Assembly (NCBI GenBank): GCA_017553685.1
Contig: JAFZKH010000002.1
Location: 44,141-108,140 of the forward strand
Direction of reading: 5' to 3'
DNA: 64,000 bases
Source of the DNA: Bacilli bacterium
GTDB taxonomy: Bacteria > Bacillota_I > Bacilli_A > RF39 > UBA660
This document shows positions 2,010 through 61,094 of this stretch, piece after piece; position 1 is the first letter of the stretch; every line of letters begins with the position of its first letter. A program made the translations under genes and the position numbers. The notes beneath the pieces are model-generated. The model saw only the letters and a program-made list of their open reading frames with translations. It searched no databases and was not told the DNA's origin.

Positions 2010-3785
2010 ATGAAAAAGAAATTAATATTTGTTTTTATATCATTTTTTCTTTTGGTATTTCCATTTAGCGTAAATGCTACAACTGATGGTTTTACCATTA
2101 CAAAATATGATGTAAAAATAATAGTAAATGAAAATAATACCTTAGATGTTACAGAAACTATTACAGCAGTTTTTGATCAATATGGAAAACATGGTATTAA
2201 AAGAGCTTTACCTACACATTCTACTTATAGAAGAAAAGTTGATGGTAGAGAAGTAGATATTAAACAAAAAGTTAAATATAAAAATATATCTATTAATGAA
2301 GACTATACAACAGAAACTGGTGACGGATATAAAACATTAAAGATTGGTAAATCATATAAGACATTAGATATTAATCAACCATATACATATATCATTAAGT
2401 ATACTTATGATACTGGTGATGATATGATTGATGAGTATGATGATTTATACTTCAATCTTATTGGTACTGAATGGACTGCTAAAATAGAAGAAGCAACATT
2501 TACTATAGTTATGCCTAAAGAATTTGCGACTAGTAATGAAAAAGGTTCTTTAATAAACTTTTCTACTGGTTATTATGGAAATGCTTATAATAAAGGTGTT
2601 AATTATAAAGTAGATGGAAAAATGATTACTGGTTTTATAGAAGAAAAATATGATGGGGTAGCACTTAATGAAAGAGAAGGTTTAACTGTTAGAATTGAAC
2701 TTCCTAATGGTTACTTTGTTGGTGCTAGAAAACATTATGATTTAACTCCTGTAATATTAGTAGGAACTATTCTAATACTTATTCTTATGATGCTAGGTGG
2801 ACTTGCATTATTTGTGAAATTTGGTCTTAGAAAGAAGAAAACAATGGTTGTTAGATATACTGCTCCTGATGGAGTAGATCCAGCATTAGCAGGTTTCTTA
2901 TATAAAGGTATTCCTGAATCAAATGATATAGTTGCATTAATAACTTATTTAGCTACTAAAGGTTATCTAAAGATAATTGATGATAAGGGTAGTAAATTTA
3001 AATTACAATTCTTAAAACCATTAGATGAAAGTGAACCAAACTATATTAAAACTACATTTAAAGGATTATTTAAGAAAGCAGATGAAGATGGTATAGTAAC
3101 TAAGAAAGATTTAACAAATAAATTCTATACATCACTTAATACTGCATTATCACAACTAGGTAAAACATATATTATTTATGCTAAGAGTCATGATAGAGTT
3201 ATAGCTTATAATATATTTATGGCTATCATATCATTCTGTTTTATATTAATACCTGTATCTGATGCATTATCATATAAAGTACATACTGTTTATGCTCCTT
3301 TATATGCTATATTCTGGGTATTAATACCAACAAATATAATACTTCAATTAGTATTAAGTATATGTACTAGAAAAAGAACTGATGAAGCAGAAAAGCTATA
3401 TGCTGATGTAGCAGGATATAGAGAATTTATAGATAAAGTAGATGTTAATAAGATTAATACTTTAGTAGAAGAAGATCCTCAATTATTCTATAATGTTTTA
3501 CCATATGCATATGTATTTGGTTTAACTAATAAATGGATTAAGAAGTTTGAATCTATTAAATTAGAACCTCCAACTTGGTATGAAGGTAATATTTATGATA
3601 TTCATACTGGAGCATTTAGACTTCAAAGTTTAACTTCAGGATTAGATTCTATTACTGCATCTGCTAAAACAACAATGTCTAGTAGACCATACGAATCATC
3701 AGGTGGATCTGGTGGCTTCGGTGGAGGCGGAGGCGGTGGCTTCTCCGGTGGAGGAGGAGGCGGCGGCGGTGGCTCAAGCTGGTAA
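2010..3785 (+). CDS. DUF2207 domain membrane protein with Gly-rich C-terminal tail
   Basis: Signal peptide, two TM segments, and a C-terminal GGSGGFGGGGGG tail, as in DUF2207 proteins found next to lemA. Confidence 0.7.
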   Translation: MKKKLIFVFISFFLLVFPFSVNATTDGFTITKYDVKIIVNENNTLDVTETITAVFDQYGKHGIKRALPTHSTYRRKVDGREVDIKQKVKYKNISINEDYTTETGDGYKTLKIGKSYKTLDINQPYTYIIKYTYDTGDDMIDEYDDLYFNLIGTEWTAKIEEATFTIVMPKEFATSNEKGSLINFSTGYYGNAYNKGVNYKVDGKMITGFIEEKYDGVALNEREGLTVRIELPNGYFVGARKHYDLTPVILVGTILILILMMLGGLALFVKFGLRKKKTMVVRYTAPDGVDPALAGFLYKGIPESNDIVALITYLATKGYLKIIDDKGSKFKLQFLKPLDESEPNYIKTTFKGLFKKADEDGIVTKKDLTNKFYTSLNTALSQLGKTYIIYAKSHDRVIAYNIFMAIISFCFILIPVSDALSYKVHTVYAPLYAIFWVLIPTNIILQLVLSICTRKRTDEAEKLYADVAGYREFIDKVDVNKINTLVEEDPQLFYNVLPYAYVFGLTNKWIKKFESIKLEPPTWYEGNIYDIHTGAFRLQSLTSGLDSITASAKTTMSSRPYESSGGSGGFGGGGGGGFSGGGGGGGGGSSW

Positions 3786-4056
3786 TACCTCTAAATTAAT
3801 AAAAGAAATAGATAATACATATGAAGTAATTAGATTTAAAGAACTTAGTAAAGTTATTAAATCTAATAAAGAATATATGACTTTAATAGATAAATTAAAT
3901 AGTACTGATAACATTAACGATGTAATTGCTATCAGAAAAGAGTTATTTAAGTACGGTGATATTAAAGAATATATTGAATTAGAGAAACAAATAAGATTAT
4001 TCTCTATGAGGCTTAGTAAAGAATTATCTAGTATAGTAGAAAAGCATACTTGTTAA
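3769..4056 (+). CDS. YlbF/YmcA-like (UPF0342) small regulatory protein
   Basis: About 95 aa and helical. The xEIDNTYEVIRFKEL...KEYxELEK pattern resembles the Com_YlbF family. The listed ATG at 3703 lies inside the Gly-rich tail of the upstream gene. GTG at 3769 follows the GGAGGAGGAGG stretch, which could act as the SD. The start is uncertain. Confidence 0.4.
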   Translation: MAQAGNTSKLIKEIDNTYEVIRFKELSKVIKSNKEYMTLIDKLNSTDNINDVIAIRKELFKYGDIKEYIELEKQIRLFSMRLSKELSSIVEKHTC

Positions 4057-4655: not shown

Positions 4656-4730
4656 TGCCCCATAGCCAAGTGGTAAGGCTCCGGACTCTGACTCCGGCAC
4701 GCGTAAGTTCGAATCTTACTGGGGCAGCCA
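4656..4730 (+). tRNA. tRNA-Gln (anticodon CUG)
   Basis: Cloverleaf is complete: the acceptor stem TGCCCCA pairs with TGGGGCA, the D-arm is AGCCAAGTGGTAAGGC, the anticodon stem is CCGGA/TCCGG around loop CTCTGAC, the T-arm is GTAAG-TTCGAAT-CTTAC, and CCA is encoded. It closely matches bacterial tRNA-Gln. Confidence 0.85.
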
Positions 4731-4826: not shown

Positions 4827-5495
4827 ATGGCAACAAATAAAAAAGAAAAAATAGATTATGTTGAAAAAAATAGAAAGAAATATTTTTATAGATTTGTTAA
4901 AAGATCATTTGATATTTTCTGTTCTATACTAGGAATGTTATTAGTACTACCAGTAGCATTAGTTACTAAGATTTGTTATTTATGTACTAAAGATACTAAA
5001 TCAATCTTTTATAAACAAAAAAGAATTGGTAAGTATGGAAAAATTATATATATTTATAAGTTTAGAAGTATGGTTTATAATGCTGATGAAGTATTAAAAG
5101 AATTATTAAAAGATCCAAAATATAAAAAAGAATGGGATAAGAATCAAAAGATTAATGATGATCCGAGAATTACTAAGATAGGTGGATTCCTTAGAAAGAC
5201 TTCTTTAGATGAATTACCACAATTCATTAATGTATTTATAGGAGATATGTCTTTAATAGGACCAAGACCTTTAGTAGAAGGAGAATTAGATGCTCATCAT
5301 GGAGATCATAAATTATATGAATCTGTTAGACCAGGTATATCTGGTTGGTGGGCTGCTAATGGAAGAAGTGCAACAGATTATGTTGAAAGACTAGAACTAG
5401 AAAACTATTATTGCAAAAATTGTAGTATCTGGTTAGATATTAAATGTATATTTAGAACAATAAAAGCAGTAATATTTAGAAGTGGAGCAAAATAG
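4827..5495 (+). CDS. Priming sugar-phosphate transferase (bacterial sugar transferase family, WbaP/CpsE C-terminal type)
   Basis: One TM helix, then KFRSM...DELPQF...GDMSLIGPRP, the PF02397 signature. Confidence 0.85.
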   Translation: MATNKKEKIDYVEKNRKKYFYRFVKRSFDIFCSILGMLLVLPVALVTKICYLCTKDTKSIFYKQKRIGKYGKIIYIYKFRSMVYNADEVLKELLKDPKYKKEWDKNQKINDDPRITKIGGFLRKTSLDELPQFINVFIGDMSLIGPRPLVEGELDAHHGDHKLYESVRPGISGWWAANGRSATDYVERLELENYYCKNCSIWLDIKCIFRTIKAVIFRSGAK

Positions 5496-5518
5496 ACTTA
5501 AATAGTCTATTTTTTTTT
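5493..5518 (+). terminator. Rho-independent terminator overlapping the stop codon
   Basis: TAGACTTAAATAGTCTA hairpin followed by T9. Confidence 0.5.
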
Positions 5519-5652
5519 ATATAAAAATATTGTGATATAAACAAATGTATGCTACGATTAAATTGTATTAATTATTCTAGCATGCGTTAATATGACAATT
5601 TGCGCGCGTACCGTTTATTTACTAAAGCTAGATAGTAAATTTGCATGACCGC

Positions 5653-5700
5653 GGGGAACACTTTCTATTAATAGATACGGGAGGTGTTTCCCGTTTTTTT
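5653..5700 (+). terminator. Intrinsic terminator/attenuator hairpin within a GC-rich leader
   Basis: GGGAACAC...GTGTTTCCC stem followed by TTTTTTTTGTTTTTT. Confidence 0.55.
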
Positions 5701-5778
5701 TGTTTTTTAGGAGGTGATTTTATACATAGGTTAGCAAATATAATTAATACAAATATTATTCATTTATAGGAGGTTTAT

Positions 5779-6717
5779 ATGGAAAATGAAATAATTATTT
5801 TTGAAAATCAAAATATTAAATTAGAAGTTAATATGAAGGATGAGACTGTGTGGTTATCTTTAGATCAAATGTCACAATTATTTGGAAGAGATAAGTCTGT
5901 TATTTCTAGGCATATTAAGAATGCATTAGACGAGGAACTTAATAAATCAGTTATTGCAAAATTTGCAACAACTGCAGGAGATGGTAAAACATATCAAGTT
6001 GAATATTATAACTTAGATATGATTATATCTGTTGGTTATAGGGTAAAATCTAAAGAAGGTATAGTATTTAGAAGATGGGCTACTAGTGTATTAAAAGACT
6101 ATATGCTTAAGGGATATGCTGCTAATGAACAAAGACTAAAGTATTTAGAGAAGACAGTTCAGTTAATTGATATAGCAGGAAGAATAGAAGAAGAGCTTCA
6201 TGGAACTGAGGCACAAGATATTATTAAAGTGATTAATAATTATTCTAATGCTTTAAATCTATTAGATGATTATGATCATAGATCATTATCTAAACCTAAA
6301 GGAACAGTATCAGATGATATGATTACATACGATAATTGTTTAAATGTAATAGGATTACTTAGATTTAATAATGATAGTGATATATTTGCATTAGAAAGAA
6401 ATAAGGGATTAAAGTCTATTATTGCTAATATTTATCAAACATTTGGTGGTAAAGATGTTTATCCGACAATTGAAGAAAAGGCTGCTAATTTCTTATATCT
6501 AATTATTAAGAATCATACATTTATAGATGGTAATAAAAGAATAGCTGCTACATTATTTATTTACTTTTTAGAGTATTATAATATTCTTTACAAGAATGAA
6601 AAAAGAGTATTAGATAATAATACTTTAGTAGCTTTAACTCTTTTAATAGCAGAGTCTAATCCTAAAGAAAAAAGTATATTAATTGATTTGGTAATGAACT
6701 TTTTAATAGACAAGTAA
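5779..6717 (+). CDS. RhuM-family N-terminal domain fused to a Fic/DOC (death-on-curing) domain
   Basis: The N-terminal half matches the RhuM virulence-protein family (VGYRVKSKEGIVFRRWATSVLKDY). The C-terminal half carries the Fic/Doc core (HTFIDGNKRIAATLFIYFL). Confidence 0.75.
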   Translation: MENEIIIFENQNIKLEVNMKDETVWLSLDQMSQLFGRDKSVISRHIKNALDEELNKSVIAKFATTAGDGKTYQVEYYNLDMIISVGYRVKSKEGIVFRRWATSVLKDYMLKGYAANEQRLKYLEKTVQLIDIAGRIEEELHGTEAQDIIKVINNYSNALNLLDDYDHRSLSKPKGTVSDDMITYDNCLNVIGLLRFNNDSDIFALERNKGLKSIIANIYQTFGGKDVYPTIEEKAANFLYLIIKNHTFIDGNKRIAATLFIYFLEYYNILYKNEKRVLDNNTLVALTLLIAESNPKEKSILIDLVMNFLIDK

Positions 6718-41912: not shown

Positions 41913-41972
41913 ATGTTATAATTTTATTAGTATTGATAATAAAAATAGGGTATCAATTTGGAGGTATTTGTT

Positions 41973-44900
41973 ATGAAGAAGAAAAGAATAGGAAAAGTTA
42001 TAGCAGCATCGTTAATAGTAGTATTAGTAGCTGCTATTTTTGGCATTTTAAAGTTATCTAGTGTAGATAAATATAAAGGCTTAGTTACAATTAATAAAGC
42101 TAGTTTATCTAGTATATCTACTAAACTTAGTGCTAATATTAGTGATTTATCTGAAGATAACAATATTGAGGTAAAAGGATATGATGAGATAGATTATAAT
42201 ATTTCATACAAATTATCTGAAGTACCAGGAGAAAGAGATGTTATTATTAACGCTAAGATAAACGAAAATGATCAGTATGCTACTTTTAAAGAAGTAACTG
42301 GTACTGATATAACATCAGTTTTATCAGCAGATAGAAAAGAAATAACTATTACTCTTAAGAATCTTCCTTCTAATGAAGAAATTACTAGTAAAGTAACAAT
42401 GCTTATTGTAAATGCTCCAAAAGGATATACAGTAAGACCTTCAATTAGAATTAAAGAATCTACATCAGATGAATATACTACTGTAGCTGTTAGAGATGTA
42501 ACTGTTAATACATCAAGTGTACAAGGTACAGTAATTGATGAAGAAGGTAATAGAGTACCAAATATAATAATTGCCCTAAAGAAAAATAATCAAATTATCA
42601 AAGAGACTTATACAAATAGTGATGGTATATATACATTAAGTGATATTACTCCAGATACTTATTCAGTAGTAGTTAATGAAGAAAACTATGAAGATTTAGA
42701 ATTAAATAACTTATATATCAAAGATGGTAATCAACTTAATTTAATTGTTAAGAAAGTATTCCCATATAGAATTGAAACTAATAAATATATTACAAAAGTT
42801 GAATTAAATAACTTAGGATCTAAAAAAGATTATTTATATAACGATGTAAAACTTGCTAATATACCAGTTAGAAAAGTTAATAACTTACATGGTAAGATTT
42901 ATTATAAAATAACTGTTCAAAATACTGGAGAAAAAGCTGGTATTATTTCATCAGTTAAAGATGAATTACCAGAAGGATTAAGTTTTGATGAAAAATTAAA
43001 CTCTGGTTATGAACTTAAAAATGGAATTATTTATAATAGAAACCTAGAAGGTATAGAACTTAGTGCAGGAGAACAAATCTCTGATACATTAATTCTTACT
43101 ATTGAAAATACTGATGTTGCTAAAACATATATTAACAAAGTAAATGCAAGAGGAGAATTATATGAACATGTTATTTACTTACTAGATGGAAGAACATATA
43201 AAACATTAGATGTACTAGAAGGTGAAACAATTGATGAACCTACAGTAAGTGCACAAAACTTCTCTGGTTGGTATACAGATGAAACATTAACAAATAAATA
43301 TAAATTTGAATTACCTGTAGAAAAAGATTTAATTCTATATGGTGTAACTGCTAAGAAACATATTGTTAAATTTAATGATAAACATCCAGAAACATTAGTA
43401 GAAACTCCATATGATGAAAAAGAAGTTGACAATGGTGAACCAGTAACAAAACCTGCTACTGATCCTGAAAAAGAAGGATATGACTTCTGTGGATGGACTA
43501 AAGATGGTGTAGTATGGGATTTCCATACACCAGTAACAGAAGATTTAACATTAGTATCTAAATACTGTATTAAATCATATAAAGTTGAATTCTATGATAA
43601 GAGTGCTTCTAATGGAGCAGAATATGAAAAGATTGGAGACATCTCAAAAGAATATAAGAGTACTCTAAGTAATAGTGAAGCTCCTGATTTATCAAATGCT
43701 TGGATAGGACATAATTTCCTTAGATGGACAACTGATCAAGCAGGTGATACAGAATATAGCTTTAATACTCAAATTAAAGAAAATATTAAATTATATGCTC
43801 AATACTCATTACAAGATAGATCATTTATCTTTAATGATGAAAACAGAATAACAGAAAAATTTGTTAAATATGGTGAAACAGTTGAAGCTATCACTGATCA
43901 AGGTAAAGATGGACATTCATTTGTTCATTGGTCTTTAGAAGTAAATGGTCAAACACCATTTGACTTTAGTACTCCAATTTATCAAACAACAACAGTTTAT
44001 GCAGTATATCAAATTAATCAATATCATGTAATATTTAATGATACTGACCCATGGACAAATGTAACTGAACAATATGATGATCAAATAGTTAATCATGGTG
44101 GAAATGCTATTGAACCGGTAGAACCTCAAAAAGAAGGTCACACATTCTGTGGATGGAAATTAAATGGTAATGATTATAACTTTAGTACACAAGTAACTGA
44201 TAATATTACTTTAGATTCTTGTTATACAAAGAATAAAGTAAATGTTTACTTTATGAATGATACTGATATATGGGAAACAAAAGAAGTACCATATGCAGAT
44301 AAAGTAACAGCTCCATTAACTAGTCCAACTAAAGAACATAAGATATTCTCATATTGGTCAGAAGATGGAATAACACCATTTGATTATGATACTCAAATAA
44401 AAGAAGAAAAATATTTATATAGTGTATTTGAGGATATAACTCCTCCAATTATTGCTCATCAACCATTATATTGGACAAATGATAAAGTTCTAGTAACAAT
44501 TAGTCATGCAAGTCCTGTATTAACATTTAAATATAAAGTTGATGATGGTGCTTATGAAGATTATGCAGGAGCATTTGAATTATCAACTAATTCAACAATA
44601 GTTGCTAAATCATTATATGAAGATACTGAATCAGAAATTGTTTCACATGATGTAACAAATATCGATAAATTAAATCCAGAGATTGGTGATATAACATTTA
44701 CACCATCTCAAACAACAATTCTTATATCTGGAACAATGACTGATAATCAATCAGGTATTGCTCAAATAAGAGTTTATAGAGATAATACAACATCTGGAAC
44801 TATTAATGGTACAGTAATTGATGCTGATTTAAGAGATTATACAAAAACAAAAGATATGAATGTTGTTGTATCAGAATTAGAACCTGATACTGAATATACA

Positions 44901-47900
44901 TTTAGAATAGTAGTAACTGATGGAGCTGGTAATGAATCAGAACAAACAGTTACTGCATCAACATCTCCAGTTGAACCAATATGTCAAATTATTTCAGTTG
45001 ATGGTGTTGATTTAAATCCTGATGATTATATGCCATTCACATTATTAGAATATGCAATTGAAGATTCTCATTGTGATAATAAATGTACAATTCAAATGTT
45101 AAAAAGTACAAATGAATCTGTTGAAATTCTTAATACTCAAGATATTACATTAGATTTAAATGGTAAGACTGTAGCAGGTGTTCTTCCTGGATATACAGTT
45201 AATAACATGGGTGAATTTACATTAATAGATAATGGAACTTCAACTGGTGGATTAATTAATGGTAATGGTATAGCTGTTTACAATAACGAAAATGCTAAAT
45301 TTACTATGGGTGAGGGAAGTTCTGATCCTACTACTGATGGCCTTGGTAGAACAGTTTCTATCACTGCTCCATATGTATTTGGTGATTCATATGGTGTTTA
45401 TTCAGAACATGATGCTTTATTCTCATTCTTTGATGGTAAAGTTAGAGGTACAAATGCTATTCAAGGTGAAGTTAATGAAACAGAGTATTTATACAATGCA
45501 ACTTCATCTCAAGTGAATGATTATGAAGAAGTTATCTTAGCTATTCAAACTGAACCAGAAGCAAGAATTAATAAGAGTAAATATTATTCAAATATTAATG
45601 TTGCTACTGTAGATGCTAAAGGTGGTACTTCTGAAATTCAACAATCACAAGATTCGTTCTTAAGTGGATTTACACATGTAGATACTGATCCTATTATTAA
45701 TGTTGAACAAGTTAATCCAAATGGATTCCCATTTGTATATGATGCAGAAAACGATATATTAAAGTCTGGTAATCAATATTATGGTTCTATGGCATTCACT
45801 GAAACAATCATAGATTTAACTAATTATGCTGAAGATCAAGTGTTTGAAATAGAATATTATGTTAATCCTAATGTTGATGGTTCAAAAGGCAATTATAATA
45901 TTCAAGTATATCCAATAACTGATGATAATGTTATTTTATCATCTGCTGTATATACAATTTATAATAATGATAATTTAAGAGCATATAGATTAACAGCTGG
46001 TCGAAAATATAAAGTTTCAATTTCATATTTACAACCTGTTAGTCTTGTAAAGGCTGAATATACTGATAATGGATATGGTTTAGAAATTCTTCCATATTAT
46101 AATTCAATACCTGAATCAAGATTAGTTATTACAAGAGCTTCTCTTCACGTTGAAGAAAGAACTAAAACAGATGAAGAATTAATTGATGGAAATAATAAAG
46201 CAGTTGGATTCTATTATGATCCTACAACAGATACAATTAGATCAGATAGTCAATATGATAAGACCTCTGATTCTGCATATGCTTATGGTTATTATGAATT
46301 AGACTTAACTAATTATGAAGGCGAATATGAAATTAATTTAACAGCAAGTCTAGAAACATATGGTAATAGTTATGGATGTGCATATATTACAGAAGATAAC
46401 TATAATAACACAAAAGATTGTTATGCAAATTCTACTAATAAAATGCTTGTTAACTTCTATTCTTATTCTTCTTCATCATATGATACAGAACCTTATACAG
46501 GATATCCTTTAGGATACGATATAGTAGGTCCTTATACTGGTTATAGAACTCTTCAAGGTGGTAAGAAATATTATCTTAATTTAGTTTATTTAAAATATAA
46601 CTTAGAACGTAGACCTGAAAAAGAAGGCTTCATAGAAAATGATATAGCTGACCAATTTATAGTAAATAATATTAAGATTTATAAAACTGGTAATACGCAA
46701 GATATTGATATGGCTGCAGAAGTAAAAGGTACTGCTTTTGATTATGATAATCCATTTACATTTAATAATGTAGAATATTATGGACTACAACATTTTAATA
46801 ACAGTGATGTTAATGATTCATATATTAAAATAGACTTAACTGATGCTACAAGTGATAAGTTATTTGAGTTTGATAGATATGGTTCTACATATTATAACTA
46901 TTATTCAACTTATATAACTACAAATAATAGAGCTTTAACAGTTGATGAAGTTAAAACTAATAGAAGAGATTTAGCTCTAGTTAAAGACGATATATATGCA
47001 ACTGGTAATATATATCGTTATGATGATAATTCTTCATACTCTTATGGTGGAGGAACTAATAAGATTTATCTTGAAAAAGGAAATGTATATTATATTCACT
47101 TTAATGTAAGACTTGGTGCTTATGGTTATAGTTATCATAATGATGAGTATGATTGTAATTCAACAAGTGGATATTGTGGTGACATGATTAGTGGAATGAG
47201 ACTAAGAGACACAAGTAATACTATTCTAAATATGGGTAAATTACCAATAACTGTTGGTTCTGTTAATGTAGATAATTCTGAAGAAGAAAGTACTACAATT
47301 ACTCAATCTACAGGTGATGTAGTTAATCCAAACGGAATGATGACTGGTTCTTATGTCTGGGATTCCGATAGAAATATGTATGTATTAGCTCATCCTATTG
47401 AGTATTATCAAGCGGCAGGATGGACTGGTGAAATAGATTTAACAAATGAAACAGAGTCAAGTTTGTATCAATTCTTATATGAATATGATCCAACTGGTAA
47501 CTTATCTATATATGCATACTATACAGTTGATGAATTATATCCTATTAAATATACGAACTATGGTAGTGGTCCAGCATATCCAGAAGGATATAATTATATA
47601 AGTACAAATGGATATATAAATTTAGAGCCTGGACATAAATATTATTTATATGTAATGTCATATAGAAACTCGAGAAGTAATATTACGACAAATGCATTTA
47701 GGTTTGATAAAGTTGAGGGAGATAGAACAAAGGAATATACTAAGGGTGAAAAAGTAATCTCATTTAATGAAGATGTTGATGAAATTCAACTTCTTAAAAA
47801 TATTCAATTAAGTTCTACACTTGTATTTGATTATGATAAAGAAGTAGTATTAGACTTAAATGGATATAAGTTAACATCAAATTTAAATGGAGCTTTAATT

Positions 47901-50900
47901 AATAACTATGGTAAGTTAACAATTAAGGATAGTCATTATGAAAATCAAACTTCTGAAACTAAAACACATAGAGGTATTTTAGAAAGTACAGCAGGAAATA
48001 TTATTAAAAATAATATAGATGCTGAGTTGATAATAAAGAATGTTAGAATTAACATTGATACTAAAAGTAGATATGGTATCGAAAACTATGGTAATGTTAA
48101 ATTTGCAGATGGTTATGATTCTAAGATTTATGTTAATGCTCTTAGAGCATATGGTATTTATAATTATAGTAGTGGTAGAATTGATGATACTTCTGATTCA
48201 ATTGAAATTGTAATGAATTATCGTAATCAAGCTGAATTACCTTATAGTAGTTTATATAAGAGTTTATATGATAGTAATCAAATTAGTTATTATTCAAGTT
48301 ATATAAATACTGGTATTTATAATAGCGGTTATTATAATGCTTCTGGAATGAAAATCTCTGGTAAGCATGGTACTGGTTTTGATAATCAATCATCAGGTAC
48401 TGCTGTTATTAAGACTTCTAATATATCTGTAGATATTAATACATATGATAAGAGACTTCATGATGAGTATAGTGATTATAACTATAGATATGTTTATACA
48501 TCAAGATATGGTACTGATTATTATGCGACAATAACAGATTATTCTATAAAAAATGCTGGTACTATGACATTAATGAATGGTACAAATGTGGGAACTAGAA
48601 CATATAATACTGGTCAATTATTTGTTACTAATAGTTCTACACTTGACTATTTAGATAATGAGAATAAACTTGTTGCAAATAATTGGGCAGAAATGAGTAA
48701 TCTTTTAAATAAGAATTCAACTATTTTCTTTGATGTTTCATATGGTGTAACTAATCAAATAGATAACTATGGTGATTTACAACTTAGAAACTATTCTGCT
48801 ACTAGTTCAACTATTAATAATTATAGTGAACTTACAGGTGATTCCCTAAATCTAGGTACTATTAATAACGAAGGTAATATGAGATTTGTTAATGGTTCTT
48901 CAAAGTATGTTAATAATGCGGGAACAGCAAGAGCAGAAAACTTTAGTGTAATAGCTGATCCTGATGTTCATTCAGAAAATATAAAAAATAGTGGTATTTT
49001 AAATCTTACACAAAACTGTACTATTGGTGATTCAAGTAATCCTACTACATATGGAATACTAATGGTTCCAGCAGGAGGAGGAGCTCAATCTAACCCATAT
49101 AAACAAGTTGAATTAAATATGGGTATAGAAGGTACTACTAATAGTCCAAATATATATGTATATGGTAAGAATACAGGTATAGCAGGTAATTGTTATAGAA
49201 CTAAGAAAAATCCGGTTTATTCAATAACAGGTACTGGATCAAATGAACGTGTAAATGCTTCTGTTGGAGATTATTTCCAATATTTAAATGGCGATATCGA
49301 AGTATTAGATCAATCAAATTATGATCAAGATTTATGTGTATTTAATATGTATAATGGATATGTAACTTCAATAGATAATCCAAATACTCCTGTTAAAGCA
49401 GTAAGTATTCCAATTAATAATACATTAGATAATGAATATACATATTTTGGTGGAGGTTTAAGATTATTTGATAAAGATCAAGCTATTTCTACAAATTATA
49501 CTTCAAACGTTGTTAAGATAGGAAATACTGATTATATTTCTCTTCAAGATGCTGTTGATAGTATAACAACAGATACACCTACAACAATTGATATACTATG
49601 GTATACAGATGTGTCTAGTGTTGTAATTCCAGAAGGAAGAAATATAACACTTAACTTTACTCAAGATCATAATTCATTTGTATATGCTAGAGATGGTGGT
49701 ATTATCAATTATGGAAATTTAACAGTACAAGGTGCTGGTAAGTTAATAAATATTGGTAAATATGCATTTATCAACTATGGAACTATTACATTTGCTGGTG
49801 GTGATTATTTAGATAACTGGCAATATACTAGAATGGAACGTTCATTATTAAAGAACTATGGAACTGCAATTGTTAATGATGGTAGTATTTCTGGTCTAGA
49901 CTTAAATAACTTTGGTGAATTAACTATTAATAATGGTTCATTAAAAGGCACTATGGTTTATGGAACTGGAACTGATTCATTAACAACTATTAAGGGTGGA
50001 TACTTCTATGGTACATCTTCAGAAACTATTGATACATATCATGGATTTAAGACTGAAGTTAAGGAATATAAAACTAACCTTAGTTGGAGACATATGATTG
50101 AATTAAATCAAGGTGCAACAGCTGTCATTGATGGTTTAAATACTGAAACAGATACAAGATATACATATGTAAGACCTATTGCGCATCTTGATAATTCAAC
50201 ACTTATTTTTAAGAATAGTGTAATTAAAGAATTATCTAGTGAATATAATCCTATTAGATATATTTCTGCTGAATATAATTCTAATGTTATATTTGAAAGT
50301 GGTACTTATGAAAATATTTATATAGATGATAATGCATCTAAAGTTACTGTAACTGGTGGTAGCTTATCTGCTTATTCAAATGAGGATGTCAACTATAACC
50401 TAATGTTTTTACATGGTTCAACACCTAAAGCAGAAGTAACTGGCGGTGAATTGTATTCTAAGAAACGTGCTATTGGTTTATCTGATTTCACAAATGGTTA
50501 TGAAATTGTAATTGGTACAAAAGGTGACAAAGATGAAAATGATGAACTAATTGTATCTAAAACAAGTCCAAGTATAACTGGAGATATATATTCAGTTGCT
50601 AAATATGGTTCTGGTTCAGGTGTTGGTTATACAGGATTCTTTGATGGAATTTTAAAAGGTAGTACAGCAGCATCTGATATTAACTTTGATGAAATTGAAG
50701 ATGACTTTGAAATCATTGATGATACTGAAACATCTAAATTTACTAAGTATCTTGATCAAAAAGATCTAGTATATAACTCAACAACTGGAGTAACTTATAA
50801 ATCATTCCAAAAAGCATTTAGTGAAGCTACAAATGGTGATCAATTAGAGACTCTTAGAACTTATACAAATACTAAGACTACAGCAACAATTGTTATCCCA

Positions 50901-53900
50901 GAAACATCTAACTTTACATTACATATTAAACACGAAATAACTGTTAATAATGATACATTTATTGTAAATAATGGTACCGCAGAGTTTATTAGTTATCCTA
51001 CAACTGTAACTAATAATGTTTCTCATGAAGGTAGAATTAGTGTTAATGTAGCTAGTAAAGTGTTTGTTAATAATGGTACTTTAACATTAAAAGTTAACAT
51101 GGACGATTTAAAATCTGATGGAACAAATAGAGAAGTTATTTTAAATGAAGAAGGTGCAACATTAAATGTTGACCGTTCTAACATTACATCAGTTCAACGT
51201 GTAATTCTTAATAATGCTGGTACATTAAATATGAATGTAGGTGGTACTGAAAGTAATCATACTTCAACAATATTTACAATGGTATATGTTCCTGGTGATT
51301 CTTCATCAGTAGACTATGCTTTAGTAAATACTGGTACTGCAAATATTAATTACTTTACTTTAGATTCTCAATATATTAGACCAATTTTATTCAATTCAGG
51401 AAGAATGGTTGTTGATCATTCATTATTTAATCAAACTGGTTCAATAATTAATGTTGCTGCTACTCAAAGTGGATTAGAGTCTCCTGTATATAACTATAAT
51501 TACTTAGAAATTAAGAATAGTAATTTATATTATGTTCCTTCTAAAATTAATTATGATAGTATATATATGTATTTATATACCATTACAGGTTATTACTTTA
51601 GTAGTAGTCCAGAAAATACTTTAGGTAATAATGAAAATGCTACATTAATTCTAGATAATAACAGCATGGATACATCTGTTTTAGGTTTAGTTTACCAAGA
51701 TGGTTACATTAGATCTTATGGTTATCAAAATGATATTCATTATGCATTATTAAAAACTGTTCCTAACCAAGTTATAGTTAAGAATTCTGAATTACATAAT
51801 ATGGCTGGTGTTGTTCAAGCTAGAGGTTATGTAGATATCCAATTTATAGATAATACATTTAATATAAGAGATTTCTTTATTCAATCATTTAGTAAACGTG
51901 AATCATATAGAAATTATTATGATAATCGTGTATTAACAATTTATGCTCCACAACTAAAAGAAAGTGATGGTGCTAGTGAAAGTGTTGATATTAGATCTAA
52001 CGTTCTAATTGATGGTGGTACATATAATACTAATGCTTATATATATGTTGATAGAGATTATACAGCATTAACTAATGAAACATTAACGATAACTACACAA
52101 TCATACATGTTCCATATTTCACCATTAGAAATTAACTGTCCAACAGTTATAAGGGATGCTACAATTAATGTTTCTCCTTTAGCAAGTAAATCAAATCATC
52201 AATCTTATTACTCAGAATATGATGCAATATTTGAAGAATATATTAAAAAGATTGAAGGAAGACCTTCTTCATATCAAAATATGATTTACACAACAAGTAC
52301 ATGGAATTGGCTTGGTGCTGTTACAACATTCCAACCAGTAACAGTTATTAATTCTGAAATTAGTGTAACTGATGCTGATAGTGAAATGCCTGCTATTAAA
52401 GGTTATAGTGAAAATGCAATTATAACAATCGGAGAAAAAGATGGTAATTATAATGAAAGTTCTCCTAGATTATTCTCACAAAAGACTGGATATCCAGTAA
52501 GCTTCTATAGAAATCTTGGAGGTGTAAACTTCTATGATGGTGTTATTGAAACAGGAGCTAGTTATGGTATTCTTGTATATAATGAAATGGAAGATTTAGA
52601 TAAACATTTCTTAGATAAAGAAACTGATTATATTATTACTGGTACAAGTAAAAAGAGATATCTATCAAGAGAAAGCATTATTAAGAATGTTACTCAAGAT
52701 ATAGAATATAGTGATATTAATCAAGCATTTAATAGTGCTAATTCTGGTGATGAATTAGAAGTATTAGTTAATTATGTACCTACAGGTATTGAAACTTATA
52801 CAATTAATAGTAAAGAATTTACACTTGATCTAAAAGGTTTACTATTCACAGTTAATTTAGAGGTATCTAATGCAAGTGATATTTCAATTGTAGATACTAT
52901 TGGTGGTGGTAAAGTTTCAAGTGCTAAAGTTTATGACACATCAGAATTATCTATAAATAATAATTCTATTAATATTGATGGATACAATTCTTCGATAATT
53001 AATATTGCTCGTGAGAGTAAATGCACTATAAATATGCATGATAATTCAGTTTTAAATTTTGAAAATACTATTGTACCTAATGCACAAAATATAAACGCAA
53101 ATGTAAATACAGCTGCATTTATGTATGATGATTCTTCAATAAATATAACAGATAGTAAAATAGCTAGAGTAGAATTAAATGATAATTCAACATATGCATC
53201 AACTTGTACAACAGATGCTGATTTATATGTAGCTACATTTGATAATAATTCGACTGAAACAATAGAAATTTCTTGTGGTAGATATGGTGCTGGTACTAAT
53301 AACGGAAGTGTACATATTATAGGTGGTAAATACGGTGATTATAGTTCAATAGATAACTATGGTACAACAGTTTTTGATGGTGGTGGAACACACAGTATTT
53401 ATAACAGAGATGTTGGTATTGTAACAATAAATGATGGTACATTCTATAGAGTAAATAATGTTGGTCAAATGACTGTTAATGGTAGTAACATTACTGAATT
53501 ACGTGGTGGGGGAATATTAAATATTACAGGCGGTTATATTAAAGATATGATTAATGGTAGTACAACTACAATGACAGGTGGTACTATTGGAAAATATATT
53601 CATTCTGGAACATTTAATTTACTTGGTGGTAAACTTGGTATGCTTACTACTCAAACTGGTACTATTAATATTGGTGTTAAAGATGGCATTATAAATAGTG
53701 AAGAACCTGAAATTAATACTGAATATTACTATAGTGAAACACCATATACTGGATTAAGTATTCATGATGGAACTATACTTAACTTCTATGATGGATTTGT
53801 TATTGGAGCATCATCACCAGGAGCTATCACTGGTAAGATTAGTGATACTGAACCTGGTTATAAGATTGGTGTTGTAGATATAGGTGATGGTAAAGAAAAA

Positions 53901-59099: not shown

Positions 59100-59325
59100 T
59101 TAATAAAAGAGTTATAATTAACTTGTAAATCAATGAGGAAAGACATGATTTATATATTTGATTTATAGAGAGTTACCGGTTGGTGTAAGGTAATATGATA
59201 TATATAAGTTACTACTTTCTAAGAGGATTAATAAATCCCGGCATAGCCGTTATATTAATTAAGTAAACAAAGGATGGTACCGCCTAAATAGGCTCCTTAT
59301 ACCATCCTTTTTTTGTTTAAAAAGG
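59100..59325 (+). promoter_or_regulatory. T-box leader (Thr specifier) with terminator/antiterminator upstream of thrS
   Basis: An AGAGAG element, an ACC codon in the specifier region, the T-box core AAAGGATGGTACCGCC, and a terminator stem AAGGATGGTA/TACCATCCTT followed by T7. Confidence 0.7.
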
Positions 59326-59333
59326 AGGAAATT

Positions 59334-61094
59334 ATGATTAATATTAAAGAAGATGAAAGATTAAGTAGATTAAATCATTCATGTGCACATTTAATGGCAC
59401 AAGCAGTAAAACATTTATATCCAAATGCTAAATTCTGGGTAGGACCTGTTATTGAAGAAGGTTTCTATTATGATATTGATTTAGGAGATAAAGTTATTAC
59501 TGATGAAGATATTGAAGCTATTTCTAAGGAAATGAAAAAACTTGCTAAAGATGGAAAGAGAATTTATAGAGAAGAAATTTCTAAAGCAGAAGCTTTAGAA
59601 AAGTTTAAAGATGATCCATATAAAATAGATTTAATTGAAAGAATGGATGAAGATAATACAGTAATATCTTGTTATACTCAAGGAGACTTTACTGATTTAT
59701 GTAGAGGACCTCATGTTGACTCAGTTAAAGAGTTAAAAAACTTTAAATTACTTAAGTTTTCAGGTGCTTATTGGAAAGGTGATTCTAATAATAAAATGCT
59801 TCAAAGAATATATGGAGTATGTTTTGATAATGAAGAAGATTTAAATAATTATTTACAAGAATTAGAAGAAGCTAAAGAAAGAGACCATAGAAAAATAGGT
59901 AAAGAACTAGGCATTTATATGATGAGTGATCTAGTAGGAAGAGGACTTCCTATGTATTTACCAAATGGTTTCATTATGTGGAATGAACTTGAAAATTATA
60001 TTAGAAATAAAGAAATTAAAAGAGGATATAAACATGTTCAAACTCCACCTTTAGGTAATGTAAATCTTTATAAAACAAGTGGTCACCTAGAACACTATAA
60101 AGATGCTATGTTCCCAATAATGGAAGTAGAAGATGAAGAATATGTTTTAAGACCTATGAACTGTCCTCATCACATGGTTATATATGGAAATGATATACAT
60201 TCTTATAGAGATTTACCTTTAAGAATAGCAGAAATAGCTAGAGATTGTAGATATGAAGCTTCTGGTGCTTTAAAAGGTATAGAAAGAGTTAGATCTTTCT
60301 GCCAAAATGATTCACATATCTTCTGTACTTTAGAACAAGTAGAATCTGAATTTAAAGGTGTAGTAGATTTAATTCTTGAATGTTATAACGAATTAAATAT
60401 TAAGAATTATAGATTTGAATTATCTTTAAGAGATCCTGAAGATAAAGTTAAATATCATCCAGATGATGAAATGTGGAATAAAGCAGAAGATATGCTTAGA
60501 ACAGTATTAAATGATTTAGGTATAGAATATGTTGAAAAAATAGGTGAAGCTGCATTCTATGGACCTAAATTAGATGTTCAAGTTAAACCTGCAGTAGGTA
60601 ATGAAATAACATTATCAACTTGTCAATTAGACTTCTGTTTACCAGCTAAATTTGATTTATCTTATATAGATTCAGATGGTTCTAAGAAAACTCCAGTAGT
60701 TCTTCATAGAGCAGTATTTGGATCAATTGATAGATTTATTGCATACTATTTAGAAGAAACAAAAGGAATACTTCCTTTATGGCTTTCTCCAGTACAAGTA
60801 AATATAGTACCTGTTAATATGGAATATCATACTAACTATGCTAAACAAGTATATGAAGAATTAAAAACTAATGATATTAGATGTGAAATAGATCTTAGAG
60901 ATGAAAAGATGAATTATAAACTTAGAGAGTCTATTATTCATAAATATCCATTAACTTTAATACTAGGAGATAAAGAAAAAGATAATGAAAATATCTCTTA
61001 TAGAAGATATGGTTCTGATGAAACAATTACTGTTTCAAAAGAGGACTTTATTAAACTAGTTTTAAATGAAATTAAAAGCAAAAAAAGTATTTAA
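59334..61094 (+). CDS. thrS: Threonine--tRNA ligase lacking the N-terminal TGS domain
   Basis: HSCAHLMAQAV editing-domain zinc motif and class II aaRS motifs. The AAAGGAGG SD precedes the ATG at 59334. Confidence 0.9.
   Translation: MINIKEDERLSRLNHSCAHLMAQAVKHLYPNAKFWVGPVIEEGFYYDIDLGDKVITDEDIEAISKEMKKLAKDGKRIYREEISKAEALEKFKDDPYKIDLIERMDEDNTVISCYTQGDFTDLCRGPHVDSVKELKNFKLLKFSGAYWKGDSNNKMLQRIYGVCFDNEEDLNNYLQELEEAKERDHRKIGKELGIYMMSDLVGRGLPMYLPNGFIMWNELENYIRNKEIKRGYKHVQTPPLGNVNLYKTSGHLEHYKDAMFPIMEVEDEEYVLRPMNCPHHMVIYGNDIHSYRDLPLRIAEIARDCRYEASGALKGIERVRSFCQNDSHIFCTLEQVESEFKGVVDLILECYNELNIKNYRFELSLRDPEDKVKYHPDDEMWNKAEDMLRTVLNDLGIEYVEKIGEAAFYGPKLDVQVKPAVGNEITLSTCQLDFCLPAKFDLSYIDSDGSKKTPVVLHRAVFGSIDRFIAYYLEETKGILPLWLSPVQVNIVPVNMEYHTNYAKQVYEELKTNDIRCEIDLRDEKMNYKLRESIIHKYPLTLILGDKEKDNENISYRRYGSDETITVSKEDFIKLVLNEIKSKKSI

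Follow-up and report, generated by a model that had tools for sequence, protein, structure and literature searches.

A kissing-hairpin leader RNA family with its own promoter and terminator upstream of phage-defence candidate genes in uncultured gut Bacilli

The RhuM-Fic gene of this Bacilli contig is preceded by a conspicuously GC-rich stretch, which raises the question of whether that stretch is a regulatory leader and, if so, of which genes. Within the 64-kb window (the whole stretch of DNA that was analysed, 64,000 nucleotides), positions 5580-5700 are 39.7% GC as against 25.8% for the window as a whole, a value attained by 0.38% of 121-nt windows, and the GC-rich patch described in the first-pass annotation was thereby borne out. 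That annotation had proposed a riboswitch- or attenuator-like leader controlling read-through from the priming-transferase gene upstream into the RhuM-Fic gene, or alternatively an EAR-like processive antitermination RNA. Its three restriction-site-like palindromes are all present (GCATGC starting at 5580, GCGCGC at 5602, and CCGCGG at 5649), but they are confined to the window’s lineage, are not conserved in other copies of the element, and were rejected as a feature of the family. The strong terminator hairpin with its T run was also recovered (GGGAACAC at 5654 and GTGTTTCCC at 5684 in its arms), and it is larger than had been described, with 16 pairs. Likewise present are a perfect Shine-Dalgarno (SD) sequence (TAGGAGGTGAT at 5708) and, further 3′, the RhuM-Fic gene’s own SD (TAGGAGGTTTAT at 5767) before the ATG at 5779; no ATG, GTG or TTG occurs 5-12 nt past the AGGAGG at 5709-5714, where the sequence reads TGATTTTATACATAGG.

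A covariance model (R1) identified 5565-5701 as the sole copy in the window and returned 63 matches in genomes and metagenomes of uncultured gut Bacilli, 57 of them distinct (79-162 bits, E ≤ 4e-16), and seven copies were recovered independently of the DNA search pattern. An element that recurs in 57 distinct copies is no chance GC patch; the random patch lacking conservation and covariation that had been set against the regulatory reading is clearly not what these matches and their covarying helices describe. The family is known from one clade of uncultured gut Bacilli only, a narrower distribution than that of most riboswitch classes, and five of 80 species-level genomes with a RhuM-Fic homologue have the leader adjoining that gene. 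Two scans of viral contigs gave chance pattern matches only, with no true copy among the 120+ contigs that matched the pattern. Searched against Rfam 15 at the gathering threshold, the whole window matched tRNA only; in E-value mode, the best matches within 5400-5850 were to unrelated families at E ~1-10, far under gathering scores, and eight other copies gave no match at E ≤ 1, so that neither a riboswitch class nor EAR could be assigned by this route. The T-box that precedes thrS in this window served as a positive control and was detected at E = 2.5e-13; a T-box leader was rejected for the element itself, which has no RF00230 match and precedes genes unrelated to aminoacylation. Full-text literature searches that combined ORF6N, RhuM, KilA-N, Bro-N or DUF1016 with RNA motifs or riboswitches likewise turned up no description of the leader RNA. 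The leader belongs to a previously uncatalogued structured RNA family of ∼135 nt with its own promoter and terminator (Table 1).

Table 1. Coordinates of the leader RNA, its parts, and flanking features in the window.
Feature	Position	Strand	Description
Terminator-like hairpin and T-run of the upstream Bac_transf (priming sugar transferase) gene	5489..5518	+	Overlaps the stop codon of that gene; outside the leader
Leader promoter	5530..5558	+	-35 TTGTGA (5530-5535), 17-nt spacer, extended -10 TGcTACGAT (5550-5558)
Leader RNA, one full-length family copy	5565..5701	+	∼137 nt; covariance model R1, 124.9 bits, E = 3e-27, full model matched
Hairpin Pa	5566..5592	+	Strands TATTAAT (5566-5572) and GTTAATA (5586-5592); 13-nt loop with kissing strand TCTAGC (5576-5581)
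Loop-loop kissing helix	5576..5632	+	TCTAGC (5576-5581) with GCTAGA (5627-5632); family consensus CUUGCC/GGCAAG
Unpaired linker J	5593..5612	+	TGACAATTTG (near-invariant), then CGCGCGTACC (variable around conserved CG..TA..G)
Hairpin P2	5613..5644	+	Strands 5613-5624 and 5633-5644; loop AAGCTAGA with kissing strand GCTAGA (5627-5632)
3′ tail, P2 to terminator	5645..5650	+	With C5644 and GCGG (5651-5654), the conserved CATG-N(1-3)-GCGG block
Intrinsic terminator	5651..5701	+	16-bp stem (5651-5666 with 5679-5694), 12-nt loop, T8 at 5694-5701
Orphan SD AGGAGGTGA	5709..5717	+	Ribosome-binding site of the element, here without a start codon
ATAATTAATACAA	5740..5752	+	Perfect 13-nt complement of the leader 5′ end (5563-5575); 15 nt upstream of the real SD
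Real SD and RhuM-Fic/Doc gene	5768..6717	+	AGGAGG (5768-5773), gene 5779-6717; Pfam Virulence_RhuM and Fic

Covariation supports four helices, specifically hairpin Pa, hairpin P2, a 6-bp loop-loop kissing helix, and the terminator. Overall, 97.4% of alignment cells were paired compared with 40-56% in slid controls, compensatory changes were found in 27 of the 35 pairs, and the observed values were reached by none of 500 shuffles; the seven pattern-independent copies alone gave 96.7% of cells paired and 17 compensatory pairs. Hairpin Pa, with 98% of cells paired and four of seven pairs compensatory, was independently recovered by RNAalifold and is marginally stable alone (-1.3 kcal/mol). P2 comprises eight continuous pairs plus G5613-C5644 and U5614-G5643 (97% of cells paired, eight of ten pairs compensatory; -6.7 kcal/mol, z = -2.5). 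The kissing helix, which lies outside the covariance model, was paired in 94.6% of cells, with four to five of its six pairs compensatory, and was found as CUUGCC/GGCAAG, CUAGCC/GGCUAG, CUUACC/GGUAAG, and GUUGCU/AGCAAC; the window’s own 5′ kissing strand is offset by one column in the alignments. The terminator hairpin (-23 kcal/mol, z = -4.8 versus shuffles) was also flagged by a consensus terminator scan, and across copies 98.6% of its cells were paired and 11 of 12 pairs were compensatory. The many G-U pairs in these helices indicate that the + strand is the one transcribed.

Sequence conservation is concentrated in two unpaired segments, the linker (UGACAAUUUG... / GACAAUUUG) and the tail (CAUG..GCGG). 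Within the linker, all 53 aligned copies have GACAATTT unchanged, as do the seven pattern-independent copies, the invariance of core bases being partly forced by the search pattern of the metagenome scan. No Watson-Crick partner for linker J was detected by mutual information, and a trans-target search of the window found no second site matching or complementary to TATGACAATTTG. In the tail, CATG and GC.G are invariant; the terminator begins 7 nt past P2, and the invariant GCGG doubles as the foot of its stem, in which two G residues are invariant and are paired with either C or U (G-C 40, G-U 16). Approximately 25 near-invariant unpaired nucleotides are kept across lineages whose stems have been completely turned over, and the element has the conserved structured domain, the covarying helices, and the conserved unpaired core expected of a riboswitch. 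A closing P1 helix, formed by nucleotides 5′ of Pa with the CAUG tail, was considered and rejected for inconsistent pairing; the positions concerned probably lie upstream of the transcription start.

The riboswitch- or attenuator-like leader of the first-pass annotation therefore survives in part, as a conserved structured 5′ leader that ends in a terminator before the RhuM-Fic gene, but no antiterminator was found with it. Inspection by hand, RNAalifold on alignments cut before the 3′ strand of the terminator, and a mutual-information scan all failed to reveal a conserved antiterminator or mutually exclusive helix; thus, the structure that had been expected to compete with the terminator was not found and the switching mechanism is unproven. 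The additional mutual-information signals (columns 51-53 with column 100) divide two subfamilies and are not Watson-Crick.

The leader promoter is of the sigma-A type, near-consensus, and strong, and a TGnTAnAAT box at fixed spacing, ∼5 nt 5′ of the TG preceding TATTAAT, is present in nearly all copies; the 5′ end of the leader was placed from the promoter spacing and its 3′ end from the T-run. The upstream priming-transferase gene, for its part, has a terminator of its own, a perfect 10-nt inverted repeat (5489-5498/5504-5513; -9.2 kcal/mol, z = -4.9) followed by a T-run. With that terminator in place and a separate promoter at 5530-5558, the idea that the leader gates read-through from the priming-transferase gene was not sustained. 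The promoter spacer also holds a Cheo/LexA-like box, TAAACAAATGTATG (5537-5550), which is degenerate in the window; similar boxes occur in a weakly enriched subset of leader promoters and are weak or absent in most. Additionally, 20 of 73 RhuM-Fic homologues without the element have a LexA/Cheo-like box with at most one mismatch upstream, versus 4.6 expected. These boxes and this enrichment, along with the failure to find an antiterminator, are in keeping with a constitutive leaky terminator behind a structured 5′ end, in which the fold would stabilise or insulate the transcript or yield a stand-alone small RNA, the harmful genes downstream would be held at low basal expression, and any regulation would be exerted at the promoter, for example by LexA. 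We consider this explanation unlikely: neither the covarying 6-bp loop-loop helix nor the retention of near-invariant unpaired nucleotides amid complete turnover of the stems is accounted for by a simple stabiliser or insulator, and most leader promoters have no good box through which LexA could act.

In most copies, the SD lies 8-10 nt past the T-run and the ATG of an ORF6N gene follows 6-9 nt on, leaving no space for another promoter, and thus the downstream gene in these copies can be expressed only by read-through of the terminator. The closest relative of the window copy (L089) has a 6-codon mini-ORF starting at an ATG that corresponds to the ATA in the window. From these comparisons, the orphan SD of the window is the element’s own SD, which serves the downstream gene in most copies and stands here as a relic before a 45-nt spacer and a second SD. 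A leader peptide after the orphan SD was rejected, because the mini-ORFs of different copies agree in neither length nor frame, are not always there, and in the relative use an ATG that is ATA in the window, and a 42-aa ORF with a TTG start (5641-5769) was rejected as a leader peptide because it is not conserved. Between the two SDs, the complement of the leader 5′ end forms an inverted repeat with it (I2, 5740-5752 with 5563-5575) that is 100% complementary and closes the minimum-free-energy fold of the read-through RNA. Counterparts with compensating changes are present in L144, L154, L165, L089, and L050; the complement occurs in ∼6 copies in total and is absent from most.

Downstream of the leader, the genes are strikingly restricted in kind. 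The RhuM-Fic/Doc product of the window matches PADLOC PDC-S23 (E = 6e-120), with weak matches to Doc toxins, and across copies the co-oriented downstream gene (the cargo) is always ORF6N, RhuM-Fic, KilA-N, Bro-N/DinD or YhcG, whatever lies 5′, except that intact leaders also occur at a few orphan sites and next to ORF6N genes that are fragmented. All cargo families match PADLOC ‘phage defence candidate’ models (PDC-S02, S05, S13, S22 or S23), and one is a DinD equivalog. No common domain or N-terminal domain was found among the cargo proteins (hhalign probability ≤12% with shallow alignments; PDB sequence searches were uninformative), and none is a ToxN/AbiQ/Abi_2-type RNase. The leaders group by host lineage, not by cargo: the leader of an ORF6N gene and that of a RhuM-Fic operon are 97% identical, and two DinD leaders are just 66% identical. 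Upstream neighbours in the 50+ other copies are unrelated to those of the window (rlmD-like methyltransferase, HAD, deaminase, ASCH, and others), and a sugar transferase is found upstream only in the window’s lineage (the window, L001-L004, and L089). In many copies, a single gene follows the leader and unrelated genes come next, and tandem element-plus-gene arrays occur in L050/L131, L097, and L110. A look-up of the exact GalE protein for variants of the glycan locus without the cassette gave the same arrangement only.

The GC-rich patch belongs to an inserted leader-plus-RhuM-Fic cassette and not to the regulation of polysaccharide genes. The window element does stand at the head of a long co-directional glycan/teichoic-acid-type gene cluster, and its two hairpins recall those of put RNAs, as would suit an EAR-like or HK022 put-like RNA for processive antitermination, which would modify the polymerase to pass glycan-operon terminators. 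This reading is already disfavoured, and we hold it to be very improbable: the element matches neither EAR nor any other Rfam family, its conserved terminator is part of the element itself, the other copies lie outside glycan loci, many before a single gene, and one of the 57 distinct contexts resembles that of the window. The multi-copy occurrence, the tandem arrays, and the perfect 13-nt inverted repeat flanking the window element would also suit a repeat acting at the DNA level, for instance a MITE bounded by terminal inverted repeats or a recombination site resembling integron attC. Of all the explanations weighed here this one is the least credible. Every copy has the same orientation relative to its promoter and cargo gene, the right repeat arm is missing from all but the few copies noted above, the pervasive G-U pairs would be G-T mismatches in DNA and A-C mismatches on the other strand, and the pattern-matching viral contigs held no copy.

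We favour, at a probability of roughly 0.5, a terminator-gated sensor leader common to a regulon of defence-candidate genes and answering a ligand or factor. A single signal common to the regulon, be it a small ligand or a factor from host or phage, would be sensed by the kissing-hairpin domain; in the default state, most transcripts would end at the leader terminator. Binding of the signal might then capture the invariant tail, which forms the foot of the terminator stem, lowering termination and turning on the potentially toxic defence genes as a regulon, and the LexA-like promoter box of some copies, the window’s included, may add DNA-damage control of initiation. The coupling of sensor to termination is purely what we infer, since no conserved antiterminator or mutually exclusive helix was found. 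The invariant unpaired nucleotides, the invariant terminator-foot G residues with varying partners, and the marginal stability of Pa count toward a sensor; against it count the non-metabolic nature of the regulated genes, the lack of an obvious ligand, the narrow distribution of the family, and the few RhuM-Fic homologues that have it alongside. Leaders that stay intact beside fragmented or missing cargo would be explained at least equally well by an RNA that has its own function.

Such an RNA would be expected under the main rival explanation, which makes the leader an antitoxin or partner RNA comparable to RCd22 (AbiF) or to those of type III systems: the abundant terminated RNA would bind and neutralise the toxic protein encoded downstream or repress its mRNA. 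Here the terminator would just set a high ratio of RNA to mRNA, and a phage that shuts off host transcription would deplete the RNA and free the effector. As in RCd22/abiF, a promoter, RNA, terminator, and toxin gene are arranged in one transcription unit; the cargo is toxin- or defence-like (Doc/Fic domain, PDC families), the promoter is strong and close to consensus, the searches revealed no switching helix, and some copies have an mRNA segment just 5′ of the SD to which the RNA 5′ end is complementary. However, that complement is missing from most copies, a single RNA type stands before five or more protein families that share no detectable domain (hhalign ≤12%), and the leaders vary with host lineage and not with protein family, contrary to type III systems, in which RNA and protein co-evolve tightly. 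Nor did Tandem Repeats Finder detect tandem repeats in 5300-6000, neither hairpin is a repeat of the other, and the cargo lacks the toxin families (ToxN/AbiQ/CptN/TenpN or Abi_2) typical of such systems. On balance, an antitoxin is a serious possibility that we nevertheless doubt.

More specifically, the preferred sensor leader could be a true riboswitch or direct RNA sensor of a phage-infection or DNA-damage signal, licensing a regulon of otherwise silent, toxic, single-gene anti-phage effectors, although so definite a version is rather unlikely. Candidate signals would be a nucleotide-derived messenger, an altered dNTP/NTP pool or a phage protein, and in this clade the leader would do for these genes what LexA does for them in related bacteria.

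Whichever function applies, the element brings to light a well-supported family of structured RNAs that fold through kissing loops, covary strongly, and match no Rfam 15 model. It also ties five ‘guilt-by-embedding’ phage-defence candidate families, never tested, into one putatively co-regulated set, the shared leader being independent evidence that the cargo genes act in a common process. The leader offers an experimental handle as well, in that whatever opens the terminator would be the condition under which the cargo genes act. Were the sensor to bind a small molecule or phage factor, anti-phage effectors would here be triggered at the level of RNA, something for which no precedent was found in the literature searched; if the leader is instead an RNA antitoxin, one antitoxin would serve several unrelated toxins.

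Several known systems resemble the leader in part. Among the purine and lysine riboswitches are terminator-type switches in which a loop-loop contact holds together the two parallel hairpins of the aptamer. The leader shares with them covarying kissing hairpins, a highly conserved unpaired junction, a terminator directly 3′, and several copies per genome before different genes; however, it starts at the first hairpin with no closing P1 helix, has no detected antiterminator and no sequence or model similarity to them, and precedes candidate defence or toxin genes and not metabolic genes or transporters. EAR (eps-associated RNA) and the HK022 put RNAs promote processive antitermination, and they resemble the leader as structured RNAs near the start of a long polysaccharide cluster, in this window only, whereas the leader has no model match to them, no association with glycan loci elsewhere, and a terminator of its own. 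The c4 antisense RNA of phages P1 and P7 is encoded upstream of icd/ant. Like the leader, it is a small structured RNA in the same transcription unit as, and upstream of, an antirepressor-type (KilA-N/Bro-N-like) gene, and a subset of leader copies shows comparable complementarity to a site just 5′ of the gene’s ribosome-binding site; unlike c4, the leader has no Rfam C4 match, is chromosomal and outside any prophage immunity region, ends in an intrinsic terminator, and provides the complement, where there is one, from a 5′ stem strand and not from loops.

A close parallel in layout is RCd22/abiF, in which a SigA promoter, a 100-130-nt ncRNA with two hairpin motifs, and a Rho-independent terminator are followed, with no second promoter, by a ribosome-binding site and the toxin gene (10.1101/2025.04.15.648962). 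With RCd22/abiF of Clostridioides difficile and the type III toxin-antitoxin systems (ToxIN, AbiQ), the leader has in common this layout, two hairpins, an RNA of ∼100-140 nt, a low-GC Firmicute host, defence-related cargo, and a toxic or abortive-infection gene without its own promoter. It differs in having no Rfam abiF-motif match and no repeated units, in its kissing loops, in serving at least five unrelated protein families with one leader type that evolves with the host lineage, and in cargo that is not of the Abi_2 or ToxN RNase type. Lastly, LexA (SOS) control of dinD-type genes is paralleled by the GAAC-N4-GTTY Cheo-box-like operator between -35 and -10 in RhuM-Fic homologues of other Bacilli, by the DinD equivalog among the cargo, and by the degenerate box in the window’s leader promoter. 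Most leaders have no good box, and whereas LexA acts on DNA at initiation, the leader is predicted to act as an RNA-level gate 3′ of the promoter.

The element upstream of the RhuM-Fic gene occupies an AT-rich intergenic space in which positions 5580-5700 reach 39.7% GC, compared with 25.8% for the window, a value reached by 0.38% of equal-length windows. It ends in a strong terminator followed by AGGAGGTGA (5709-5717), which has no suitably spaced start codon. The motifs listed in the first-pass annotation were all found where it had placed them, and its observation of a GC-rich patch, a terminator and a Shine-Dalgarno (SD) sequence without a start codon was confirmed; the outcome it had named as refuting, a chance GC patch, gave way to a conserved element with covarying helices. 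Within 100 nt there are three SD-like GGAGGT(G/T) motifs, at 5679-5686 (terminator 3′ strand), 5709-5716 (the orphan SD) and 5768-5775 (the real SD); the pyrimidine-rich terminator 5′ strand (CACUUUCU) can form a helix with the motif in the terminator 3′ strand or with the orphan SD, and across copies this strand is generally anti-SD-like.

Relatives of the RhuM-Fic protein were collected from species-representative genomes (80 loci, all from uncultured gut ‘Bacilli’, ‘Tenericutes’ or ‘Clostridia’ MAGs), and the intergenic sequence was matched by BLASTN and nhmmer in five of these (L010, L024, L050 twice, L072 and L075); one copy each in L024 and L050 precedes a different gene. Their alignment contained an invariant core, GTTAATATGACAATTTGG ... 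GCATG..GCGG, and one hairpin with both sides changing together, and a DNA pattern made from this core yielded at least 120 metagenome stretches. In the loci gathered to that point, nhmmer recognised at least 67 copies (at least 57 distinct), and R1, a covariance model of the leader family, found at least 63 copies at 79-162 bits and exactly one in the 64-kb window (124.9 bits). No true copy occurred among viral contigs matching looser patterns.

Compensatory changes in the alignment defined four helices: hairpins Pa and P2, a loop-loop kissing helix and the terminator. In a MAFFT alignment 94.9% of cells were paired, versus 41-56% with slid partners; in the model-based alignment 97.4% were paired, versus 40-56%, with both-side changes in 27 of 35 pairs, and none of 500 shuffles reached the observed values. 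The kissing helix was 94.6% paired and its pairs varied, for example among CG, GC and UA at one position and between GC and AU at another; because it lies outside the model the alignment procedure cannot favour it. Seven pattern-independent copies gave the same picture (96.7% paired, 17 compensatory pairs), RNAalifold independently recovered Pa, P2 and the terminator, and the many G-U pairs identify the + strand as the RNA. Unpaired stretches are near-invariant 3′ of Pa (UGACAAUUUG) and 3′ of P2 (CAUG-N(1-3)-GCGG); this is partly by construction in the metagenome copies, since their selection pattern contained TATGACAATTTG, CATG and GCRG, but the pattern-independent copies also share these bases, except that L075 lacks one T. 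The element is very probably a real, conserved, cis-acting structured leader.

Features of the window and of compared loci (L-numbers, from other genomes or metagenomes)
Feature	Sequence	Position	Strand	Details
Intergenic space	window			283 nt, between Bac_transf priming sugar transferase (4827-5495) and RhuM-Fic gene (5779-6717)
Upstream gene's own hairpin and T-run	window	5489-5518
-35 box	window	5530-5535		TTGTGA, 17 nt upstream of -10 box
Extended -10 box	window	5550-5558		TGnTAnAAT; TGCTACGAT
Pa	window	5566-5572 / 5586-5592		UAUUAAU / GUUAAUA; compensatory changes
P2	window	5613-5624 / 5633-5644		compensatory changes
Kissing helix	window	5576-5581 / 5627-5632		6 bp; Pa loop UCUAGC, P2 loop GCUAGA; consensus CUUGCC / GGCAAG
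Terminator hairpin	window	5651-5666 / 5679-5694		16-bp stem, -23 kcal/mol, z = -4.8, then T8
DUF2207 membrane protein	window	2010-3785		long Gly/Ser-rich C-terminal tail (GGSGGFGGGGGGGFSGGGGGGGGGSSW)
117-aa GTG ORF	window	3703-4056		overlaps DUF2207 tail region in another frame
tRNA-Gln (CTG)	window	4656-4730	+	between rsmD-like methyltransferase and priming sugar transferase
4247-aa ORF, TTG start	window	41958-54701	+	Listeria-Bacteroides repeat domains, CarboxypepD_reg domain; presumably a giant surface protein
T-box leader	window	59124-59300	+	upstream of thrS (59313-61094); 62.3 bits, E = 2.5e-13
Broken ORF6N	L097	2287-3167
Broken ORF6N	L111	1522-3126
Broken ORF6N	L141	4205-4707
Broken ORF6N	L155	100-1036
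Broken ORF6N	L159	602-2135
Broken ORF6N	L189	about 1735-1800
Cheo/LexA-like boxes	L005, L013, L015, L031, L038, others	~30-60 nt upstream of RhuM-Fic start

The Rfam search proposed earlier gave no family match in Rfam 15 for any of nine copies, the window's and eight others. The tRNA-Gln is the sole match at gathering threshold in the window, and a default scan misses the thrS T-box because its score falls below the gathering score of 93; its detection by the same procedure in this AT-rich window indicates adequate sensitivity. No tandem repeats were found at the leader, and full-text literature searching turned up no account of an RNA of this kind. The leader is a new RNA family, and the type of regulation it represents is familiar. 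The first-pass annotation was right about the architecture, a structured leader ending in a terminator, but misassigned its biology.

In nearly all copies the promoter boxes stand at a fixed distance from Pa, so that the RNA is predicted to start at the base of Pa (~5564-5566), without a closing P1 helix. Most copies carry AAGGAGG 8-10 nt past the T-run and the downstream ATG 6-9 nt further, which leaves no space for a second promoter, so the downstream gene relies on terminator read-through. The same spacing explains the window's ‘orphan’ SD as the element's own: it does lack a usable start codon but is not ownerless, and is followed after ~45 nt by a second SD serving RhuM-Fic. In L089, the closest relative, it precedes a six-codon mini-ORF; the window has ATA in place of that start ATG, and in other copies such mini-ORFs differ or are absent. 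Read-through from the priming-transferase gene, as originally suggested, conflicts with that gene's own hairpin and T-run. Promoter, structured RNA and terminator together gate the downstream gene.

Additional control is possible in some copies. The leader 5′ end (5563-5575) is perfectly complementary over 13 nt to 5740-5752, 15 nt upstream of the real RhuM-Fic SD, and pairing of these two segments closes the minimum-free-energy structure predicted for the read-through transcript. Equivalent 10-15-nt complements occur in L165, L144, L154, L089 and L050, with compensating changes in L144 (GUAAUAAU / AUUAUUAC) and L154 (G/C), and most copies are without the feature; by competing with Pa, it may bring further control, of translation or of stability, to read-through transcripts. 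Upstream of RhuM-Fic homologues without the element, many genomes carry a Cheo/LexA-like GAAC-N4-GTTY box (GAACAAATGTTTG) in the -35/-10 spacer; allowing one mismatch, it was found in 20 of 73, versus 4.6 in shuffles, so SOS control of the gene family is probable in related bacteria, like that of dinD in E. coli. A degenerate box (TAAACAAATGTATG, 5537-5550) is present in the leader promoter of the window; enrichment among leader promoters is weak (4 versus 1.2).

Upstream neighbours vary across all loci (among them rlmD-like methyltransferase, HAD, deaminase, ASCH, aspartyl protease, sugar transferase). Directly downstream on the same strand are ORF6N (~32 loci among the matches listed), RhuM-Fic (nine among the matches listed), Bro-N of two types, one the DinD equivalog, KilA-N in some loci, or a YhcG/DUF1016 nuclease, with RhuM-Fic always following YhcG; the exceptions are L189 and one L164 copy, where the gene has been lost, and L179, where a P-loop gene intervenes before RhuM-Fic. 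All these cargo proteins match PADLOC phage defence candidate models (PDC-S23, S05, S22, S13 or S02; E = 1e-84 to 1e-122), proposed as defence candidates because of their embedding in BREX, DISARM and type I R-M loci (Payne et al., bioRxiv 10.1101/2024.01.29.577857). The element thus belongs to a cassette of leader plus defence-candidate gene, which in the window happens to sit within a glycan or teichoic-acid-type locus; an EAR-like antitermination RNA of glycan operons, an alternative raised in the first-pass annotation, finds no support in view of this gene association.

Two copies precede different genes on the contigs of L050/L131, L097 and L110, in tandem modules (L050 636-3933 / L131 4565-7864; L110 2166-5383; L097 2134-5881), for example YhcG - leader - YhcG - leader - RhuM-Fic. 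Such arrays often adjoin rlmD-like and gerA genes, a setting that points to a chromosomal hotspot. Beside an intact leader, many ORF6N genes are broken up, with two or three ORFs or a stub in place of the full gene, and may be pseudogenes or assembly errors.

For the operation of the gate, we favour a signal-responsive attenuator, riboswitch-like or factor-dependent, at a probability of about 0.5. Its unpaired nucleotides are invariant within a kissing-loop architecture, the terminator-foot G residues are invariant with C or U as partners, Pa alone is marginally stable (-1.3 kcal/mol), and a single type of leader precedes genes of at least five protein families with no detectable shared domain. 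Leader variants also group by host lineage, not cargo: identity is 97% between L117 (ORF6N) and L179 (RhuM-Fic operon), 94% between L162 (DinD) and L117, and 93% between L146 (ORF6N) and L144 (KilA-N), versus only 66% between the two DinD leaders. The leader would answer a host-wide signal, and this clustering is the pattern such a regulon element would leave. Against an attenuator, no conserved antiterminator, the competing structure sought since the first-pass annotation, was found in the leader alignments, no obvious ligand suggests itself, and the taxonomic range is narrow. A constitutively leaky terminator is improbable, and all other readings share what remains.

The leader has a well-defined kissing-loop fold and joins five candidate phage-defence families under one RNA gate. 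In place of an attenuator, it could be an RNA antitoxin, as in RCd22/AbiF or type III toxin-antitoxin systems, a reading we hold to be rather unlikely: the layout is that published for RCd22/AbiF (10.1101/2025.04.15.648962), the cargo is toxin-like and leaders are kept beside decayed genes, but RNA and protein do not co-evolve, the leader has no repeats, and the cargo toxin families differ from those of the known systems.
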